This document shows positions 21,408 through 53,930 of a stretch of 64,000 nt of DNA, one piece after another; the stretch's first letter is position 1, and each line of letters starts with the position of its first letter. The notes under the pieces are model-generated. The model searched no databases and was not told the DNA's origin. It saw nothing but the letters and a program-made list of their open reading frames with translations. The translations under genes were made by a program, and so were the position numbers. Source of the DNA: a virus; the IMG/VR virus record IMGVR_UViG_3300025865_000006, positions 53,071-117,070 of that record. One strand, written 5' to 3'.

Positions 21408-22179
21408 TGGAGCTAATCTTTGTGGGCGAGGAATTCTATTCACGCTCATCTACAATGATGAGCAGCCTATATACAACCGATTTCCAGAGGTATGACTGGG
21501 GATTTGTGCAGCGTGATCTGCGTAATGGTATGGAGATTCATATTCGTCCTGCTTATAAGGGCGAATATGATGCTCTAAAGAAAGAACTTGATAGGCGGAT
21601 CGATGAGTCTGCTTCCGCCAAGAATTGGTCCGGCCATCCTTGGGTATATGGACTAGGCAATCTTGAAAAGGATGGAGAAGGGTATAAGGATACCCGAGGT
21701 AATCACTATACCTATCTAGAGCTAGAGGAAGCGGTTAGAAAAGCTAAGGATTTCTAAATGACTGTAAGCATCGTACTTAGTGTTGATCGTAGTCTATTGC
21801 TTGATATCATTGTTGATGGCATGGATTATGTTTGTAGGGGGTATTGGGGGCAAATCGAAGATTATAAATGGGAGTGGTGGTATACTGCTGATAAGGTTGG
21901 CGATCCAACAGGTACAATCAATCCTGATATCACCGACGATACTGTACTTTGTCGCATTCGAGATGATGATGACGGCATGGCAGAAGAGGAAGATCGGCCA
22001 TTTGTTGATATTACTCTCGCTAAATTGGAACAAGCATTTGGCTGGACACTACAGTATTTCCCGCATACCGTTGTTCCTTTTGAGACTAATAGTAGTGGCA
22101 CAATCATTGATTGTAATCAAGATGCTGAAACTCAGGATATCATGATCCAGTACATTTGCTTTGGAGAGGTTATCTACGG

Positions 22180-22881
22180 ATGAAAGAATACGCACATATT
22201 GATTCTGTATATAAGCGGGATCAAAAGGGTAAGTTTATCCTTGGTGAATACTCTACTCCTGAATTTAAATATCTAAAAGATAATCCTTGGGCTTGGACTG
22301 AGAAGATTGATGGTACAAATATTCGTATCATGTGGGATGGTGCAGATGTACGTTATGGTGGAAAGACTGATAACGCACAACTTCCATCTAAGCTTGTCAA
22401 TTGGTTGAATACCCAAACTATTAGAGAAAACTATGATGGGGACGATACCGAAGGGGATCTGGCCTTCAATCCTTACACTTTCAATAGATTGTTTGGGGGC
22501 GAAGGAAATGTCTGTCTTTATGGAGAAGGCTATGGTGCTGGTATTCAGAAGGGTGGTGGACTCTATTCCCCCGAGCAGAAGTTTATTCTCTTTGATGTAA
22601 AGGTTGGTCCTTGGTGGCTTTCTCGATTCGGAATTGAAGATGTTGCAAAGAAACTCAATCTCGATGTTGTGCCAATTGTTGGAACACAAACTCTTGAAGA
22701 GATGATTGCATTTGTTGGTGATTATCGAACTCCCGAGGGAGAGCGCCACCTAACAGAAATTCCCCAATCTGCAATTGGTACCGCTAAGATGGAGGGATAT
22801 GTTGGCCAACCAGTAATTCCCTTGTTTGATCGTAGAGGACGACGTATCATTACAAAAGTCAAATACAAGGATTTCGCATGA
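22180..22881 (+). CDS. ATP-dependent RNA ligase (Rnl2-like nucleotidyltransferase)
   Basis: Motif I TEKIDGTN, III LYGEGYG, IIIa FILFDV, IV EGYV, V TKVK. Confidence 0.8.
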   Translation: MKEYAHIDSVYKRDQKGKFILGEYSTPEFKYLKDNPWAWTEKIDGTNIRIMWDGADVRYGGKTDNAQLPSKLVNWLNTQTIRENYDGDDTEGDLAFNPYTFNRLFGGEGNVCLYGEGYGAGIQKGGGLYSPEQKFILFDVKVGPWWLSRFGIEDVAKKLNLDVVPIVGTQTLEEMIAFVGDYRTPEGERHLTEIPQSAIGTAKMEGYVGQPVIPLFDRRGRRIITKVKYKDFA

Positions 22882-47551: not shown

Positions 47552-47640
47552 GGATGGTTGGCCGAGTCTGGTAAGGCGCTAGTCTTGAAAACTGGTAAGG
47601 TGTAATAGCTACAGGGGTTCGAATCCTCTACCATCCGCCA
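47552..47640 (+). tRNA. tRNA-Ser (TGA)
   Basis: GGATGGT/ACCATCC acceptor, CTAGT-CTTGAAA-ACTGG anticodon arm, long variable arm, G73, CCA. Confidence 0.92.
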
Positions 47641-47645
47641 ATTTT

Positions 47646-47729
47646 GGAATGGAACCGAAGTGGTTAGGAGCCTGTCCGCTAAACAGGTGCAGGAAACTGT
47701 TGTCGGATCGTCACCGATCCATTCCGCCA
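47646..47729 (+). tRNA. tRNA-Ser (GCT), atypical
   Basis: GGAATGG/CCATTCC acceptor, CCTGT-CCGCTAA-ACAGG (C33), long variable arm, T loop ATCGTCA, G73, CCA. Confidence 0.8.
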
Positions 47730-47741
47730 ATTTAAAACCGT

Positions 47742-48089
47742 ATGGGGGAGTCTTATGTGGCAGATACAGGTAACTTTGCTACAGGGCAGGAAAGGTTTCC
47801 CCAAAAAAACGCCAAAAAGCGCATAGATGATTCTGGAAGTTATGCTAAGGGTGGAGAGAAGTTACCAAGAATGAATGCCATTGATCGTAAGAAACCCGGT
47901 ACTTTTGCTGACACGGAGGGAATTAAAATGGTGGATTCAGATAATAAAGGCGATCCACGGGTTACTTCTGACACCAAGGGAGAAGAAATAACCCCCGACA
48001 ATCCAGAAACAATCAAGCAGTTTCCAGTAGATTTAACTGATAAGAAAGCTGTAAAGAAAGTGGAAGGGGATCAGAAGGAAAAGAAATAG
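47742..48089 (+). CDS. charged, probably disordered hypothetical protein
   Basis: 115-aa K/D/E-rich ORF. Confidence 0.55.
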   Translation: MGESYVADTGNFATGQERFPQKNAKKRIDDSGSYAKGGEKLPRMNAIDRKKPGTFADTEGIKMVDSDNKGDPRVTSDTKGEEITPDNPETIKQFPVDLTDKKAVKKVEGDQKEKK

Positions 48090-48319
48090 ATGGATACCTA
48101 TACAATTTATAAATCTGCTAAAAACATATTAGTAGGTGCTCTTAAAGAGCATATAAAAGATAGAGAGTATATTTGGTACATGGAAGAAGCAGAATTCTAC
48201 GCTAATCAAGTTGTAGAAGAGTGTTTAAGGGAGGGACTAACCTATCCTTTTAAGGATTTAAATAAGCCTGATCAAACATATGCTGTACCAATGTATCCAA
48301 ATCCAAATTCACACTACTA

Positions 48320-48396
48320 GGCGTCGTGCCTGAGCGGCTTAAAGGGCTGGTCTGCAAAACCGGATTACGTGGGTCCGAATCCCACCGATGCCTCCA
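48320..48396 (+). tRNA. tRNA-Cys (GCA)
   Basis: GGCGTCG/CGATGCC acceptor, CTGGT-CTGCAAA-ACCGG anticodon arm, U73, CCA; T loop TCCGAAT. Confidence 0.9.
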
Positions 48397-48398
48397 AT

Positions 48399-48472
48399 GG
48401 GCCTATAGTTTAATGGGAGAACATATCGTTTGCACCGATAAAATCAGAGTTCGATTCTCTGTGGGTCCACCA
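48399..48472 (+). tRNA. tRNA-Ala (TGC)
   Basis: GGGCCTA/TGGGTCC acceptor with G3-U70, TATCG-TTTGCAC-CGATA anticodon arm, CCA. Confidence 0.92.
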
Positions 48473-48514
48473 AAATAATCAAAAAGTTGAACCTCGCCGT
48501 AGGAAAGGTGTACT

Positions 48515-48655
48515 ATGCAAGAAGTGAAGGGCACGGCCTTCAAACAAAGGGAATTACAGCCTTGGGAAAAACCGCTAAGTCCACCAAGGGCTGTTCCAAA
48601 GCCCATTTCGACAAAGAAAAAAGGCCGTTTCTCTCCGAAAGAGAAAACTGAATAA
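48515..48655 (+). CDS. 46-aa basic peptide (below the ORF-track cutoff)
   Basis: AGGAAAGGTG SD then MQEVKGTAFKQRELQPWEKPLSPPRAVPKPISTKKKGRFSPKEKTE. Confidence 0.45.
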   Translation: MQEVKGTAFKQRELQPWEKPLSPPRAVPKPISTKKKGRFSPKEKTE

Positions 48656-48757
48656 TTGGGGCGCTTTGGCTTCCTAGGAAATGCGCAAACAGTTCTGCAA
48701 CCGGGCAGACCGCCCCAAATAATTATCTGGATAGCAACAGAATTGAGGTAAGGAAGA

Positions 48758-50341
48758 ATGGTTAAGTTAAATACAAAGACAGCAGTAACCTTACAGTCCC
48801 TTGATCCCGAAAACGTGACTCTTAATGAAGAGGCCGCAGTAGCATGGAAGCTTCCTGCTAAGGATCGCCTAATTGAACGTGTTCTTGGAGCCTTTTGGAG
48901 TGAGGACACTTTCTACAAGAGCGGAGATAAGATTGCCGCAGAGATTGTAAAGGATATCCGTGAAGTAGCAGCAGTTAATCCGAAGTTTATTCTCCAGTTG
49001 GCTGCATATGCTCGTAACGAGATTTATCTCCGAACAACCCCACAGGTCTTGCTTGTGGAGGCGGCTAACATTGAAAAGTGTAAGCCATTTATTCGTGAGT
49101 ATACTCCTAAGATTGTAAAGCGTGCAGATGAATTGAGCGGTGTTATCGCTTACCAGTTGTCTACACATGGAAAGCCTATTCCAAATGCCCTAAAAAAGGG
49201 TTTGGCAGCAGCCTTCGCTACATTTGACGAATACCAATTGAATAAATATGATTCTGATAAGGGAGCAGTTTCTCTAGGTGATGTGCTCAATCTTATTTAC
49301 CGTAAGGAAGGATATCCTGTTTCCAAGGCTATGCGAAACTATCTTGTCAACGATGTTGTTGACGCAGAAGCATTGCCAAAGATTGCAGCACTAAAGCAGT
49401 TGCTTGCAAAGGATACACTGGATGTTGAGGCAAAGGCCCTTGTAAACGGTGGAGCAGTAACTTGGGAATCTTTCATCTCCAAGTTTGGTTCGTCTAAGGA
49501 AACTTGGGAGTTAATCGCTCCTAAGATGGGATATATGGCATTGCTACGTAACTTGCGTAACTTTGACCAAAAGGGTGTAACTCTTGATCCTATCCTTGCG
49601 CGAATTACAGATGAGGACGCTGTAAAGAAGTCTAAGCAGCTACCATATAGATTCTACTCTGCGTATAAGGAAATTGAGAATCAGAGCATTATGCGAGCAA
49701 TCGCTAAGGCTTTTGAATTGTCTATCTCTAATGTTACGCTTGGTGGAAGTACAGCGGTTCTTGTGGACCTTTCAGGGTCTATGACAGGAGCGCGAGTGTC
49801 CGAAAAGTCTAAGGTGACAAATGCAGAAGTTGCGGCCGTTCTTGGGGCAATCGTTACCAAGAAGGCTAAGGAATCTGTAGTTATCGGCTTCGGTCAGACT
49901 GCGCGTAGAATCATGGTAAATCCTGACGATACTATGATCACCAACATCGATAAAATTGTAAATACAAATGTCGGTCACAGTACAAACGCTGGACTTGCAT
50001 TCAAGATTTTGACTGATAACAAGATCAAGGTAGATCGTATCGTGCTTGTCTCTGACATGCAGTGTTACAATACCGAAAAAAGTCAGAGCAAGGCCGGAAT
50101 TTTTGGAACAACCTATCCTTGGTACACAGATTCGTTTGTGAATGAGGAATGGAAGAACTACTTGGCGCAAGTAAATAGAAATGCGTATCTATACTCTCTT
50201 GATGTTAGTTCGTATGGAACACGTCAGACTCCAAACAAGTCTAAGAACGTTATCTTGGTCAATGGGTGGTCAGACAAGATCATCGATTACATGAACATTG
50301 TGGAGAACAATGTTATGGAGCAGCACATTAATAAGTGGTAA
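48758..50341 (+). CDS. rsr: Ro60/Rsr-like TROVE + vWA RNA-binding protein
   Basis: N.E...A N-terminus, EDTFY, LAAYAR...LRT.P, IVKRADEL, LKKGLA.AF..FDEYQL.KY, TWE, MGYMALLRNLRN, SKQLPYRFYSAY; vWA MIDAS VDLSGSM and SDMQ. Confidence 0.92.
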   Translation: MVKLNTKTAVTLQSLDPENVTLNEEAAVAWKLPAKDRLIERVLGAFWSEDTFYKSGDKIAAEIVKDIREVAAVNPKFILQLAAYARNEIYLRTTPQVLLVEAANIEKCKPFIREYTPKIVKRADELSGVIAYQLSTHGKPIPNALKKGLAAAFATFDEYQLNKYDSDKGAVSLGDVLNLIYRKEGYPVSKAMRNYLVNDVVDAEALPKIAALKQLLAKDTLDVEAKALVNGGAVTWESFISKFGSSKETWELIAPKMGYMALLRNLRNFDQKGVTLDPILARITDEDAVKKSKQLPYRFYSAYKEIENQSIMRAIAKAFELSISNVTLGGSTAVLVDLSGSMTGARVSEKSKVTNAEVAAVLGAIVTKKAKESVVIGFGQTARRIMVNPDDTMITNIDKIVNTNVGHSTNAGLAFKILTDNKIKVDRIVLVSDMQCYNTEKSQSKAGIFGTTYPWYTDSFVNEEWKNYLAQVNRNAYLYSLDVSSYGTRQTPNKSKNVILVNGWSDKIIDYMNIVENNVMEQHINKW

Positions 50342-50347
50342 TATCGC

Positions 50348-50440
50348 GGGTGCTACCGCTGTAGAGCGTGGTCGTACGTTGGAGTAATCCCCTGTACGAT
50401 TTCACAGGCTGGTACAGGCTGGTGAACAGTCAGCCCACCC
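50348..50440 (+). ncRNA. structured RNA immediately after the Ro60 stop codon
   Basis: GGGTG/CACCC closing stem, TCGTAC/GTACGA helix capped by GGA-GTAA-TCC, GGCTG-GTGAA-CAGTC hairpin. Confidence 0.5.
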
Positions 50441-50544
50441 AAAATATCAAACAATTGATCCGCCGTGGTCGTCACCGATAAGGGGCTGTTAAAGGATCAA
50501 GCTAGACGAGCCGGACTAAGCTAGCAATATAATAGGAGATTAAA

Positions 50545-50739
50545 ATGGAAACCCCCGATTCAAAAACGGTAACGGCAGCAACCGATAGAGCCAAAGAAGT
50601 TGTAGAAGCCTTTAAGATTCTTCGTAAAGAGGATAACATTCAGGAGAACGCAAAACATCTTTGGTCACTAGCGAATTCATTAGTGGCTGATATTCATCGT
50701 GGCTTGGACAACACAAGTTACGTAGATAGAGCAGAATAA
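50545..50739 (+). CDS. small hypothetical protein
   Basis: AGGAG SD, 64-aa helical ORF. Confidence 0.6.
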   Translation: METPDSKTVTAATDRAKEVVEAFKILRKEDNIQENAKHLWSLANSLVADIHRGLDNTSYVDRAE

Positions 50740-50741
50740 TA

Positions 50742-50815
50742 TAATCGGCAGTGAAGTTTAGAGATACTTCTCTTGAAATGAAAACCAAACTCTAAGCGAC
50801 CCAATTCTCCGATTA
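50742..50815 (+). ncRNA. scaffold RNA 1 (Y-RNA-like; Ser-UGA-like anticodon loop cargo)
   Basis: TAATCGG/CCGATTA, CAGTGAA, GTTTAGAG/CTCTAAGC, ATACTTC, GACCCAATTCT. Confidence 0.7.
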
Positions 50816-50828
50816 ATTGAATATTATA

Positions 50829-50916
50829 TTATCTAGGTAGTGAAGGTTTTGGATACTTCTAAAAACTTCAAAATGTCTTTTGTAAAAAGCCAGAGCCACT
50901 AAATCCTCCTAGATAA
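50829..50916 (+). ncRNA. scaffold RNA 2 (Y-RNA-like; A/U-rich cargo)
   Basis: TTATCTAGG/CCTAGATAA, TAGTGAA, GGTTTTGG/CCAGAGCC, ATACTTC, ACTAAATCCT. Confidence 0.7.
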
Positions 50917-50929
50917 ATTTAGAACCTAG

Positions 50930-51073
50930 TATTAGGTAGTGAAGCATAGGATTTCTTCATGGGAGCCGCATGTCGGGAGTTCAATTCTCTCTTCCCCGAA
51001 CAATCGCCGGGGAATAGCTCAGTGTTAGAGCAGCGGCCAGTAAAAAAGCCTACGCGACCAAATTCTCCTAATA
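50930..51073 (+). ncRNA. scaffold RNA 3 (YrlA-like; permuted tRNA-Pro-like cargo)
   Basis: TATTAGG/CCTAATA, TAGTGAA, GCATAGG/CCTACGC; cargo GCCGC-ATGTC-T arm-TTCCCCG..CGGGGAA-D arm-GCGGC. Confidence 0.8.
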
Positions 51074-51079
51074 AATTTT

Positions 51080-51155
51080 GGCCCAATCGTCTAACGGTTG
51101 AGGATTGCAGATTTTCACTCTGCCGATCAGAGTTCGATTCTCTGTTGGGCTACCA
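51080..51155 (+). tRNA. tRNA-Glu (TTC)
   Basis: GGCCCAA/TTGGGCT acceptor, GCAGA-TTTTCAC-TCTGC anticodon arm, GTTCGATTC, CCA. Confidence 0.9.
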
Positions 51156-51166
51156 AAGAGGTACAA

Positions 51167-51409
51167 ATGAAGAGTACGTTTAAAACTAAGAATTATACTG
51201 GGACAGCTTGTCTAGCAATGCTGATAGCGGTAGTTCTGTTCTTGGTTCTATATTTAGGACTGATCGGCGGGGTAATAACCTTGCTATGGAACTGGCTGTT
51301 AGTAGGACTATTTCAGTTCCCAATTATTAGTTGGGCGCAAGGAATAGGTATAGCACTTCTATTAGGTATAGTAGGTAGCTTCTTTAAAGGCCAAATAACA
51401 AGTAAATAA
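51167..51409 (+). CDS. small membrane protein
   Basis: AGAGG SD; hydrophobic ORF with LWNW..F..P.IS..Q..G motif; start refined from 51098. Confidence 0.7.
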   Translation: MKSTFKTKNYTGTACLAMLIAVVLFLVLYLGLIGGVITLLWNWLLVGLFQFPIISWAQGIGIALLLGIVGSFFKGQITSK

Positions 51410-51539
51410 GGTAGTGCAGCCGTTGGTTACTTCACTTTTAATGAAGAGTAAAGGGTTCGAATCCCTTATCCTCCGTCATGGGGGATGGGTGTAATGGTAA
51501 CACGCTAAATATCCAATAGCGACTAATTCTCCTTATTTA
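51403..51539 (+). ncRNA. scaffold RNA 4 (permuted tRNA-Lys(TTT)-like cargo with intact anticodon arm)
   Basis: TAAATAAGG/CCTTATTTA, TAGTGCA, GCCGTTGG/CCAATAGC; cargo CTTCA-CTTTTAA-TGAAG, AAGGG-TTCGAAT-CCCTT, ATCCTCC/GGGGGAT, GTGT-AATGGTA-ACAC. Confidence 0.8.
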
Positions 51540-51552
51540 ATTTGCGTTTTAT

Positions 51553-51674
51553 ATTAGAGCAGTGAAGTGTTCAGATACTTCGGTTACAGTAGCTTCGGTT
51601 ACATCAGCAAGGTTCAACCCCCTGCAAACGGGATGAAAGTCTCGTGTTTTCTGGCACAGCAAATTCTCTCTAAT
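51553..51674 (+). ncRNA. scaffold RNA 5 (UUCG hairpin, T-arm-like hairpin and GAAA hairpin cargo)
   Basis: ATTAGAG/CTCTAAT, CAGTGAA, GTGTTCAGA/TCTGGCAC, TACTTC; GTAGC-TTCG-GTTAC, GCAAGG-TTCAACC-CCTGC, ACGGGAT-GAAA-GTCTCGT. Confidence 0.75.
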
Positions 51675-51785
51675 CTAATTTAATTTTGTAACGGCCTACG
51701 TGCTTGCGAGCGGAGGGGTAATGAATTATTACCGAGGCAACAGGACTACGTAACCTGTAACATTTTATAAGCCCTTATAGTTATA

Positions 51786-51932
51786 ATTAGTTTATGGGTA
51801 GTGACGGTTTCGGATACTTCAACATATTAACACCAATTATAAAATGTCGTACGCCTCTAATAAGTAGGCTTGGCAACCTAACCCACGCGGGGACGCGCAT
51901 CCCGAAGTCATCTAATCCTCTCTATAACTAAT
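51786..51932 (+). ncRNA. scaffold RNA 6 (unrelated cargo)
   Basis: ATTAGTT..ATGGG/CTCTATAACTAAT, TAGTGAC, GGTTTCGG/CCGAAGTC, ATACTTC, ATCTAATCCT. Confidence 0.7.
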
Positions 51933-51935
51933 CGT

Positions 51936-52009
51936 TGGCGTGTCGTTCAATGGTAGGACGCTAGGCTGTTAACCTTGATATGGTGGTTCAAATCCACCCG
52001 TGCCAGCCA
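51936..52009 (+). tRNA. tRNA-Asn (GTT)
   Basis: TGGCGTG/CGTGCCA acceptor, CTAGG-CTGTTAA-CCTTG anticodon arm, G73, CCA. Confidence 0.9.
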
Positions 52010-52020
52010 AACTTTTTCGC

Positions 52021-52095
52021 AGGGGAGTAGCATAATGGTAATGCAGCGGTCTTTGGAACCGCGTAGTGTAGGTTCGAATCCTACCTCCCCCGCCA
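52021..52095 (+). tRNA. tRNA-Gln (TTG)
   Basis: AGGGGAG/CTCCCCC acceptor (1-72 mismatch), GCGGT-CTTTGGA-ACCGC anticodon arm, G73, CCA. Confidence 0.9.
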
Positions 52096-52115
52096 ATTTT
52101 TTATTTGGAGAGAAG

Positions 52116-52352
52116 ATGAGACGCATATTAAAGGGATTACGAATCTTTGTTTTAGGCGCTATACCTGTAGCAATTATACTAGGTATTCCGGGGTTAGCAA
52201 TTCTTATACTGGGTAAAGAACTATTTGGGTATGTGATCTTTGTCGCAGCGCTAATTATGGCTACCTTTGCATTAGGTTTGATAGTAGATATGTTTCTAGA
52301 AGATATTAAAGAGAGCCGTGCCCGTAATAGTCATAATTCACACCCATGCTAG
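52116..52352 (+). CDS. small membrane protein (two TM helices)
   Basis: GGAG SD; hydrophobic segments; start refined from 51975, which overlaps tRNAs. Confidence 0.65.
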   Translation: MRRILKGLRIFVLGAIPVAIILGIPGLAILILGKELFGYVIFVAALIMATFALGLIVDMFLEDIKESRARNSHNSHPC

Positions 52353-53032
52353 GAAATACAAAGGTTCTGGACAAGGGTTTCGTTGGCTTGGTGAGTTATG
52401 CGGGCGGCGATCTATCTGTGGTTGCTTCTGCAAGAGTCTCCAATGGCCTAGGACCGGAGGAAACGTCTAAGGGTGCAGAGAAGGACCAGAAGCTAATTAA
52501 TTACTTAATGAAACACCGGCATGGAACGCCTTTTGAACATAACATGTTCACCTTTTATGTGAAAGCCCCGATATTTGTAGCAAGAGAGTGGATGCGCCAT
52601 CGTATAGGCTCATATAATGAGAGAAGTGGTAGATATACAGAGTTTAAACCAGAGTTTTATATTCCTCTGGTGGCGCGAGGACCAGCCGAGACTAATAAGC
52701 AAGGGTCCATTATGCTCAATAGTGAAGCAGCTAATACTTGGGTGGCCATTACAATTGAAAACTCTTCTATGGAAGCATACGAGGACTATAAGAGGCTGAT
52801 TTCCTTTGGAATAGCAAAAGAAATGGCTAGGATGATTCTTCCGGTAAATACTTACACAGAGTATTATTGGACCGTTAATGCACGATCCCTGATGAATTTT
52901 CTAAGCCTTCGTTGCGGAGAAGACGCTCAGTGGGAAATCAGGCAGTACGCCGAAGCAATCAGAGATATCTTCAAAGACATTATGCCTATGACATACAAGG
53001 CATGGATTGAGAACGGGAGTTTAGCACCATGA
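52346..53032 (+). CDS. thyX: FAD-dependent thymidylate synthase
   Basis: ARVS, H.TPFEH, APIFVAREWMRHRIGSYNERSGRY, KEMARMILP, AQWEIR. Confidence 0.95.
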   Translation: MLGNTKVLDKGFVGLVSYAGGDLSVVASARVSNGLGPEETSKGAEKDQKLINYLMKHRHGTPFEHNMFTFYVKAPIFVAREWMRHRIGSYNERSGRYTEFKPEFYIPLVARGPAETNKQGSIMLNSEAANTWVAITIENSSMEAYEDYKRLISFGIAKEMARMILPVNTYTEYYWTVNARSLMNFLSLRCGEDAQWEIRQYAEAIRDIFKDIMPMTYKAWIENGSLAP

Positions 53033-53394
53033 CGATACCAAACACACTACCAGATTGGGAAAAGAGTTATTGGTATGATTCCGAGCCGATTGATCCTGAA
53101 AAAGAAGGCATACCGGGACCCGGCGCAAGAGCATATATCACCTACTCACTAGTTGATCTAGGCGAATGGCTTGCTCCGCTAAGGACTGGAACAGTTTATG
53201 TATTCAGACCGGGCAAGAGATATGATCTTGTTCTATTAACTGATGATGGTTGGATTACCCAATATCCAGATGCCCTATTTACGGGCGCAGAGGGTGATAC
53301 AGGAAAGTTTATTTCAAACATTACAGGAACAAGTGCCCCGCTACCTGTTAGTACTAGTAATGTTATTATAGCCGCAAGACTAAGTAAGCTATAG
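53029..53394 (+). CDS. hypothetical protein
   Basis: 121-aa ORF coupled to thyX by ATGA overlap. Confidence 0.6.
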   Translation: MTIPNTLPDWEKSYWYDSEPIDPEKEGIPGPGARAYITYSLVDLGEWLAPLRTGTVYVFRPGKRYDLVLLTDDGWITQYPDALFTGAEGDTGKFISNITGTSAPLPVSTSNVIIAARLSKL

Positions 53395-53468
53395 CCCGGA
53401 TTGTTGTAACGGAAGCGATTCAGTTCTACACACTGGCAGACGAGGTTCGATTCCTCGATTCGGGACCA
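53395..53468 (+). tRNA. tRNA-Val (TAC), atypical (C33)
   Basis: CCCGGAT/ATTCGGG acceptor, TCAGT-TCTACAC-ACTGG anticodon arm, CGAGG-TTCGATT-CCTCG, A73, CCA. Confidence 0.8.
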
Positions 53469-53768
53469 ATCATTAAAGTGAGTGAGATGCAAGCAGAAAA
53501 AATTGAATTTACACAGGCGACTTTTGAGGATAAGTACTGCCCTAGCTGCGATTACGGCTATGACGATCCCGAAGATTCCTGTTTATGCGATGAAAGTTGT
53601 GGAGCGATAGGATGCCAAGGCTCAAAATACCATCAAAAAGAGTTAAATCGCCCAAAATATCCTTCTGGACTAGATTAAAAAGTGGTAAGATTACTCTACG
53701 TGGAAGAATAACCTCAATAGAGAAGTCTCCCCTAGAAAAGCCAGATAAAGTAGCACACGCTGACTCAT

Positions 53769-53846
53769 AGCCCTTAGGCCAACCGGTTTGTAGGCGTCTG
53801 TCTTATAAACAGATTTTGGTGGGTTCGACTCCCACAGGGGCTACCA
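53769..53846 (+). tRNA. tRNA-Ile (TAT)
   Basis: AGCCCTT/AGGGGCT acceptor, TCTGT-CTTATAA-ACAGA anticodon arm, GTGGG-TTCGACT-CCCAC, A73, CCA. Confidence 0.88.
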
Positions 53847-53856
53847 ACTTAATAAT

Positions 53857-53930
53857 GCCGCTGTCGTATAACGGAATTACTACTGTTTTGTACTCAGTAA
53901 ATCGGGGTTCAATTCCTCGTAGCGGCCCCA
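53857..53930 (+). tRNA. tRNA-Thr (TGT)
   Basis: GCCGCTG/TAGCGGC acceptor, ACTG(T)-TTTGTAC-(T)CAGT anticodon arm, CCA. Confidence 0.85.

Follow-up and report, generated by a model that had tools for sequence, protein, structure and literature searches.

A predicted phage Ro60 gene followed by a probable six-member set of Y RNAs with one shared handle and variable inner modules

Introduction

Why would a phage carry six RNA units of a single design, each with its own inner part, downstream of one gene for the RNA-binding protein Ro60 and among its tRNA genes? The locus that raises this question lies in a 64,000-nucleotide stretch of DNA, all of which was analysed and which we call the window; it forms the last 64 kb of IMG/VR record IMGVR_UViG_3300025865_000006, a 117,070-bp soil virus record of 98% CheckV completeness. 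An earlier note, made from the letters alone, had read the locus as a phage Ro60 gene followed by six Y RNA-like RNAs with the same scaffold and different cargoes, and the analysis reported here follows up that reading.

Bacterial and phage Y RNAs, as characterised in PMC4201824, lie no more than 4 kb from the Ro60 gene and on the same strand, have a terminal stem, carry a 5′-strand motif GNCGAAN0-1G that is thought to contact Ro60, and show YUAY after the next helix. According to the same account, YUAY (or UA) follows a stem that is the counterpart of the anticodon stem, the cargo of YrlA is a permuted tRNA mimic and that of YrlB a plain hairpin, and RNAs of this design are free RNAs cut from precursors. 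A bulged helix and recognition through the 5′ strand have been described for Y RNAs (10.1101/312249), and the Ro60 of Thermus phage phiLo has been reported in complex with host polynucleotide phosphorylase (PNPase; PMC12135203).

Results and Discussion

Predicted Ro60 gene and shared scaffold

The features that carry the argument are listed here; R1 is the covariance model introduced in the next section.

48758-50341, plus strand: predicted Ro60/Rsr gene, 527 amino acids, TROVE ring and vWA domain (Pfam, PHROG and structure matches)
50742-50815, plus strand: unit 1, predicted short Y RNA, 74 nt (R1, 53.9 bits, E 6.9e-12)
50829-50916, plus strand: unit 2, predicted short Y RNA, 88 nt, 30-nt A/U-rich loop (R1, 42.8 bits, E 5.7e-09)
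50930-51073, plus strand: unit 3, predicted YrlA-type (Rfam YrlA RF02553 and constrained fold)
51403-51539, plus strand: unit 4, predicted YrlA-type (constrained fold; full scaffold by stem detector)
51553-51674, plus strand: unit 5 (constrained fold with a UUCG hairpin, a T-arm-like hairpin with loop UUCAACC and a third hairpin)
51786-51932, plus strand: unit 6 (5′ motif; inner stem 8/8 paired; constrained fold)

The open reading frame (ORF) at 48758-50341 is predicted to be a phage Ro60 gene, as the earlier note had proposed. Its product matches the TROVE domain PF05731 at E 2.8e-34, scoring 119.5 bits where the cut-off is 23, carries a C-terminal vWA_Ro60 domain (PF25045, E 1.2e-07) and matches phrog_850, 'RNA-binding protein', at E 3e-53. 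The nearest solved structure is Thermus phage phiLo Ro60 (9KOP/9L5Y, E 4.2e-27), and Deinococcus radiodurans Rsr (2NVO, E 1.9e-07) is matched as well. The DxSxS motif of the metal ion-dependent adhesion site is kept, with VDLSGSM aligned to VDVSGSM of phiLo Ro60, and its residues D337, S339 and S341 are invariant across 38 homologs.

All six units were recovered at the positions first proposed for them, each on the plus strand, starting 401 and ending 1591 bases past the Ro60 stop (span 50742-51932). The composite motif AGTGMMN{7,9}WTWCTTC matches six times in the 64-kb window, at 50750, 50839, 50938, 51413, 51561 and 51800, always on the plus strand, whereas shuffled versions of the window gave a mean of 0.20 matches and at most two, with six reached in 0 of 100. 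A looser form of the 5′ motif does not occur in the rest of the 117,070-bp record.

The order of parts is constant. On the 5′ side, an outer stem of 7-13 pairs is followed by a single bulged pyrimidine, AG and four bases of loop, and then by an inner helix, 7-8 pairs long, (A/U)UACUUC and the cargo. On the 3′ side come the partner of the inner helix, a linker that closes with AAUUCU or AAUCCU (the final CU of which pairs with the AG) and the outer partner; the internal loop between the AG/CU pairs and the inner helix is asymmetric. The 5′ motif reads AGUGAAG, AGUGCAG or AGUGACG, and the YUAY position after the inner helix is AUAC or UUAC in five units and UUUC in unit 3, where (A/U)UACUUC reads AUUUCUUC, with UUCUUC in place of UACUUC. 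The stem pairs that the earlier note had quoted, GTTTAGAG/CTCTAAGC, GGTTTTGG/CCAGAGCC and GGTTTCGG/CCGAAGTC, are present as written. Imperfections are few: the inner stem of unit 3 has one A.C mismatch, unit 5 a single bulged U, and the 13-bp outer stem of unit 6 a one-base bulge. The same succession of stem, bulged pyrimidine, two pairs, internal loop and upper stem is that of animal Y RNAs.

Two other accounts of the repeated motifs were considered and ruled out. Pairing of GAAG in the 5′ motif with CUUC of UACUUC does not explain them, since the two bases after AGUG vary (AA, CA, AC, UA, UU) and CUUC is constant; an origin as a repeat or a miniature inverted-repeat transposable element is ruled out because the stems of the six units have no common sequence.

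Three of the gaps between neighbours (50816-50828, 50917-50929 and 51540-51552) are A/U-rich and exactly 13 bases long, and unit 3 stands 6 bases from a tRNA-Glu gene and unit 6 only 3 bases from a tRNA-Asn gene. Across 48300-52500, promoter-like sites (6 against 7.6 expected) and terminator-like sites (3 against 3.9 expected) are not in excess. The sequence directly 3′ of several outer stems begins AAUU or AUUU; together with the constant A/U-rich spacers, this may be a processing signal.

Covariation of the stems

Scanning IMG/VR with the 5′ motif yielded units on other viral contigs. A MAFFT alignment of 28 short units from this set put the 3′ strands out of register, and the covariance model R1 was hence built from 11 short units of equal linker length, taken from other viral contigs only, with a hand-written two-helix structure and with no sequence from the window. 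It was run over the window and 80 loci of other viral contigs (81 sources; L-numbers below denote these loci), which were taken from 307 Ro60-positive viral stretches of an alignment-based scan with the encoding of a Ro60 relative as the sole criterion. Two other scans added little: a single-protein scan of viral contigs for Ro60 gave eight stretches that fitted the pattern and no relatives among them, and a metagenome scan gave at least two short loci, both lacking the downstream region.

At E<=0.01, R1 matched 93 times, in 52 of the 80 loci and in the window, where there was no match outside the array. Every one of the 93 matches lies on the strand of Ro60, and those inspected are close to the Ro60 gene. 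A covariance model had been named in the earlier note as a way to check its reading, and R1, into which only units of other viral contigs went, recovers units 1 and 2 with the E-values listed above.

Across the 75 distinct rows of the R1 alignment, pairing holds in 94.2% of cells, compared with 57.3% after shuffling and 44-47% with slid partners; both sides change in 17 of 17 pairs (outer helix 9/9, inner helix 8/8), and the covariation score is 0.927 against 0.223 for shuffled and 0.12-0.15 for slid partners. Because that alignment had been fitted to the model structure, which weighs against taking its pairing at face value, we also ran a model-free test, in which sites were picked by the 5′ motif alone. 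Both cognate partner strands were found downstream, in the right order, at 47 of 68 distinct sites, compared with a mean of 2.7 and a maximum of 6 of 68 for non-cognate downstream sequence.

Natural variation was available from a soil metagenome, in which a variant of about 95% similarity carries the array. Stem pairing is kept at all three of the differences 50795 A>G, 51593 C>T and 51599 T>C, the latter two falling in the UUCG hairpin of unit 5, and 51412 T>C alters the bulge base alone. The stems covary, and the six units are structured RNAs of one scaffold; the proposal of selection on RNA structure is upheld by the 17 covarying pairs and by the cognate-strand test.

Identity of the units as predicted Y RNAs

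The six units lie within 4 kb of Ro60 on its strand and have terminal stems, and all except unit 3 have YUAY after the inner helix. Over the 75 distinct units, the columns of the 5′ motif read N, A44/G18, G61, U45/C27, G64, N, A62, G54, and its first position covaries with the partner base (AU 44, GC 18). The AGUGAAG of the window shares alignment columns with GGCGAAG, a literal GNCGAAG, or AGCGAAG of relatives, so that the handle appears to be the canonical one of YrlA and YrlB with two base changes. The UAC columns of this alignment, whose rows R1 had selected, are nearly invariant (U75, A72, C75 of 75).

By motif and predicted fold, then, the six units are most probably Y RNAs with a sequence-variant handle. 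Their assignment to the Y RNA class in the earlier note agrees with the YrlA match of unit 3 described below and with the place of the 5′ motif in the columns of the published one. Of the further proposal, that the constant internal loop binds Ro60, homology of the motif columns sustains a prediction: the constant bulge together with the internal loop is most likely the docking site for Ro60 on every unit.

Variable inner parts

Beyond the shared handle, the units diverge. The cargo of unit 1 is a 19-nt A-rich loop with the core CUUGAAAUGAAAAC, which is identical at 14/14, 13/13 and 12/13 positions to units of L072, L014 and L011, phages whose Ro60 is 26-31% identical to that of the window and whose unit stems are unrelated in sequence to those of unit 1. 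The loop of unit 2 is similar to that of a unit at L158:4533-4613.

Unit 3 covers the whole Rfam YrlA model (RF02553) at E 2.6e-04, with 30.9 bits against a gathering score of 69, and its constrained fold places a T arm (GGGAG-UUCAAUU-CUCUC), a 7-bp closed acceptor-like hairpin and a D arm (GCUC-AGUGUUA-GAGC) within a 5-bp stem, which is the YrlA design. Unit 4 folds in the same manner, with the T arm AGGGUUCGAAUCCCU, a 7-bp acceptor-like hairpin and the D arm GUGU-AAUGGUA-ACAC; five bases 5′ of its T arm stands the hairpin CUUCA-CUUUUAA-UGAAG, which has a 7-nt anticodon-like loop. In Rfam, unit 4 gives a partial tRNA match (51412-51467, 24.8 bits) and no YrlA match. YrlA-type units like these two are present in several other loci. 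The first 20 cargo bases of unit 5 match L005:2876-2986 at 18 of 20 positions. The 88-nt cargo of unit 6 has two hairpins, one of them with a GGGA loop, and found no match among the units compared.

Units 1 and 2 are thus modelled as short hairpins, units 3 and 4 as permuted tRNA mimics of the YrlA type and unit 5 as partly tRNA-like. At least three cargo types other than YrlA (those of units 1, 2 and 5) recur in distant phages; in all, at least four types recur in distant Ro60 phages, and the library is not random.

A different arrangement was seen at L126:7432-7565 and L128:7586-7720, where the Y RNA handle surrounds a tRNA-Lys(CUU)-like body whose parts follow the normal, not the permuted, order and whose D, anticodon and T arms are good. 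These bodies are called as tRNA-Lys by ARAGORN, and they match the Rfam tRNA model at 46 bits over model positions 5-66; the conserved UACUUC stands in place of the acceptor 5′ strand, and acceptor pairing is poor.

Array size and linkage to TROVE genes

Array sizes were counted from R1 matches and AGUG-type motifs and are lower bounds. Among the 81 sources there are 48 distinct non-empty arrays:

1 unit: 17 arrays
2 units: 12 arrays
3 units: 10 arrays
4 units: 2 arrays
5 units: 4 arrays
6 units: 2 arrays
7 units: 1 array

The nearest relatives, with Ro60 proteins 54-78% identical, have 3-7 units each in the same neighbourhood. Beyond viruses, three metagenome-assembled genomes (MAGs) have copies of the 5′ motif beside a TROVE gene: six in a Nibricoccus MAG and three in a Clostridiaceae MAG, in each of which R1 confirms one unit at E<=0.01 on the TROVE strand, and two in an Opitutales MAG, which has no R1 match at that threshold.

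Published counts are lower. Two Y RNAs are given for Salmonella and two for Mycobacterium smegmatis (PMC4201824), at least two for D. radiodurans and two for phage phiLo (PMC12135203); for 22 phages, the best YrlA match per genome alone is given (PMC4201824). Among the phage Y RNA accounts found (PMC4201824, PMC12135203, PMC7824862, PMC11482910 and 10.1101/312249, as far as the material drawn from them extends, with some reviews outside this comparison), none has more than two per phage. The novelty first claimed for the size of the array therefore holds against the published phage arrays compared here and does not hold against related sequences, given that 3-7 units recur in related phages and six motif copies are found in the Nibricoccus MAG.

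Eight motif-bearing viral records have no TROVE gene in the flank. In five of them TROVE is encoded elsewhere in the record, 5-19 kb away and on the same strand where position was compared.

Genomic setting

The virus record has a G+C content of 42.7% and 29 tRNA genes, which form two blocks near its ends; the Ro60/Y RNA array lies inside one of them, the tRNA/Ro60 block at 47552-53930 of the window, and 19 of the tRNA genes are far from Ro60. The other features of the array region are as follows.

51080-51155, plus strand: tRNA-Glu(UUC) gene within the array (ARAGORN; Rfam tRNA 55.6 bits)
51167-51409: small membrane-protein ORF (phrog_2169), its stop codon overlapped by the 5′ stem of unit 4
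51936-52009, plus strand: tRNA-Asn(GUU) gene at the closing end of the array (ARAGORN)
52021-52095, plus strand: tRNA-Gln(UUG) gene at the closing end of the array (ARAGORN)

Relatives whose Ro60 is as little as 54% identical retain the order tRNA-Ser, Cys, Ala, Ro60, units, tRNA-Glu, units, tRNA-Asn, Gln; the position of tRNA-Glu within the array is the same in L123, L124 and L126-L129, as is the succession of tRNA-Asn and tRNA-Gln in relatives. A DNA search of a named phage collection returned no close relatives, its matches being to tRNA genes only.

Between the Ro60 stop and unit 1 (50342-50741) lie about 200 G+C-rich bases and a 64-codon ORF (50545-50739) that has no match in Pfam and PHROG searches. 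This segment looks like an insertion, because in L123, the Ro60 of which is 78% identical, unit 1 comes directly after the stop codon. Its first part (50342-50480) folds no better than shuffles (z -0.79), and the same holds for the 111-base gap between units 5 and 6 (51675-51785; z +0.46), which is without the scaffold motif. The soil-metagenome variant has 135 other letters in place of bases 51650-51686, marking a variable spot.

A small ORF precedes Ro60, and the gap between the two holds, just 5′ of the Ro60 start, a hairpin at 48656-48718 with GGGGCG/CGCCCC as its closing pairs; the 90-base stretch around it folds with z -2.08. Further 5′, outside the tRNA/Ro60 block, a 121-residue ORF at 46784-47149 matches the SLOG-type families YAcAr (E 7.6e-07) and DNA_processg_A (E 1.6e-07). 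The sole RNA-repair-type gene found in the genome is a match to the RNA_ligase family PF09414 at 22156-22881 (E 6.8e-14); the RtcB and CCA-adding enzyme families have no match anywhere in the genome.

Proposed mechanism and alternative explanations

We consider it probable that the locus is a Ro60/Y RNA system of the phage in which the RNA set has expanded to six members and a shared handle presents a variable effector module. By homology, Ro60 would dock on the 5′ strand of the bulged helix in each unit. The units would probably be transcribed together with the tRNA cluster, a shared transcript being suggested because the spacers are 3-13 bases long and promoter- and terminator-like sites show no excess, and would then be excised by host tRNA/RNA processing enzymes. 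The variable inner part would act as the effector module, each Ro60-Y RNA particle tethering or gating Ro60 to a different partner, such as host PNPase or tRNA-recognising proteins, by analogy with D. radiodurans, Salmonella and phiLo.

Several observations weigh against this interpretation, in addition to the fitted alignment mentioned above. The literal GNCGAAN0-1G motif is found in none of the six units, which have U where it has C and A where it has its first G. Scoring against Rfam, as the earlier note had suggested, gave a divided result: unit 3 does match YrlA, at 30.9 bits well below the gathering score; units 1, 2, 5 and 6 match no Rfam family, and no unit other than unit 3 matches an Rfam Y RNA family. 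R1 does not span cargoes of about 80-100 bases, matching units 4 and 6 only in part (E 0.029 and 0.25) and units 3 and 5 not at all, and units 3-6 rest on the 5′ motif, the stem detector and the constrained folds. In the soil-metagenome variant, 51797 G>A would, unless compensated, disrupt a pair in the outer stem of unit 6; the variant mapping leaves aside 49 further differences. The expected co-occurrence of scaffold and TROVE, which the strand agreement of the R1 matches and the five records with TROVE elsewhere support, fails in G008, a complete 35-kb virus record without TROVE, in which the scaffold-like match is weak and atypical; G004 and G007 have no TROVE either, the former being a record 57% complete with the unit at a contig end and the latter a 4% fragment.

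Among the alternatives, the one that fares best is compatible with the units being Ro60 ligands and gives them a part in counter-defence: tRNA and anticodon-arm mimics tethered to Ro60 could serve as decoys or sensors for anticodon-loop nucleases and so shield the 29 phage tRNAs. Across the family, 34 of 138 units have a hairpin of at least four pairs with a 7-nt loop of the form YU-NNN-R-N directly after UAC, where 200 shuffles gave a mean of 3.2 and a maximum of 9. The loops CUGUUAA (5) and CUUGAAA (4) recur, both being the loops of tRNAs of the window itself, tRNA-Asn and tRNA-Ser(UGA), and CUUUUAA is found in unit 4. The anticodon arm is intact in the tRNA-Lys(CUU)-like bodies of the L126 and L128 units, there are 29 tRNA genes in the phage, and gp130 of phage Bas63, which is Ro60-like, has been reported to act against the Ppl defence (PMC11482910). 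Stable 7-nt U-turn loops are, however, common, and in the YrlA topology (as set out in 10.1101/312249) the hairpin stands at the position of the variable arm, not of the anticodon arm; by the same criterion units 2, 3, 5 and 6 lack such a loop, and unit 1 has only a 3-bp version. We regard this counter-defence role as unlikely. Similarly speculative, and in our judgement unlikely, is the broader idea of the array as a programmable panel, in which one handle would present whole permuted tRNAs, anticodon-arm look-alikes (Lys-like CUUUUAA, Ser-like CUUGAAA) and conserved A-rich loops. Host enzymes that attack or modify particular tRNAs would be baited, sensed or neutralised by such a panel, as a counter-defence acting beside the 29 tRNA genes of the phage. 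If it were true, each cargo class kept across phages with 26-31% identical Ro60 would stand for a distinct host target; and if the anticodon-like loops matter, the locus would tie Ro60 to the conflict between phage and host over tRNAs.

An explanation that dispenses with Ro60 is that the units are decayed or rearranged tRNA genes, or by-products of the tRNA cluster, whose motifs are processing signals. Their place inside a conserved tRNA cluster, the partial matches of several cargoes to tRNA models and the ARAGORN calls of tRNA-Lys within two related units speak for it. It is nonetheless improbable, as all 93 R1 matches are on the Ro60 strand and those inspected are near the gene; the scaffold motif is absent elsewhere in the genome despite 19 tRNA genes far from Ro60, and it corresponds to the published Ro60-binding motif; and the loops of units 1 and 2, which lack any tRNA-like part, are nevertheless kept across phages with 26-31% identical Ro60. 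We regard it as very improbable that the units act in cis, as attenuators, stabilisers or processing barriers that regulate expression of Ro60 and the tRNA genes, and are not free small RNAs: the lack of a promoter- or terminator-like excess in 48300-52500 does imply that they probably lie within a longer transcript, but each is a closed, self-contained stem unlike its neighbours in sequence, cargo classes are kept independently of adjacent genes, and published Y RNAs of the same design are described as free RNAs cut from precursors (PMC4201824).

If the locus is, as we consider probable, an expanded Ro60/Y RNA system, its value lies in the size of the set, its modularity and its conserved non-tRNA cargoes. 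Beyond PNPase, few effectors of bacterial and phage Y RNAs are known, and one Ro60 with six RNAs on the same handle offers a defined bait set for pull-downs as well as a natural system in which to test the tether model for the function of Y RNAs. Searches by the Rfam YrlA model or a literal CGAA motif miss most members, with only one of the six units here having even a weak Rfam Y RNA match, and the number of Y RNAs per genome is for that reason probably underestimated.

Comparison with known systems

The closest parallels are YrlA and YrlB of Salmonella Typhimurium and Mycobacterium smegmatis (PMC4201824, RF02553). In the published description they, too, lie within 4 kb of Ro60 on the same strand, with a terminal stem bearing the 5′-strand motif, then a helix and, after it, UA as a conserved element. 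Of their two classes, the first mimics a permuted tRNA, with T arm, closed acceptor-like hairpin and D arm in that order, and the second is a plain hairpin; they are processed from a common precursor. The phage locus differs in having six units instead of two, AGUGAAG in place of GNCGAAG, and a constant UACUUC. Its units score below the Rfam threshold, tRNA genes are interleaved with them, there is no rtcBA operon, and units 5 and 6 add further cargo types.

Thermus phage phiLo (PMC12135203; 9KOP, 9L5Y) provides a viral counterpart, with a phage Ro60, the adjacent stem-bulge-stem RNAs Yrl1 and Yrl2 and a CGAA-type motif. Its two RNAs lie upstream of the gene, whereas the six of the window lie downstream among tRNA genes, and in the account given there the phiLo RNAs are not described as tRNA-like.

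Metazoan Y RNAs (hY1, hY3-5; Xenopus Ro-Y RNA, 1YVP) resemble the units in their lower stem, single bulged pyrimidine, short helix, internal loop, upper stem and variable loop, and in comprising several paralogs that combine one Ro60 handle with different loops. Sequence homology to them is limited to a short motif; each is a Pol III gene of its own, a species having two to four of them, and none is tRNA-like. Set beside these systems, the locus belongs with the Ro60/Y RNA system already known, as an expanded member that varies in sequence, and does not represent an element of a new kind.

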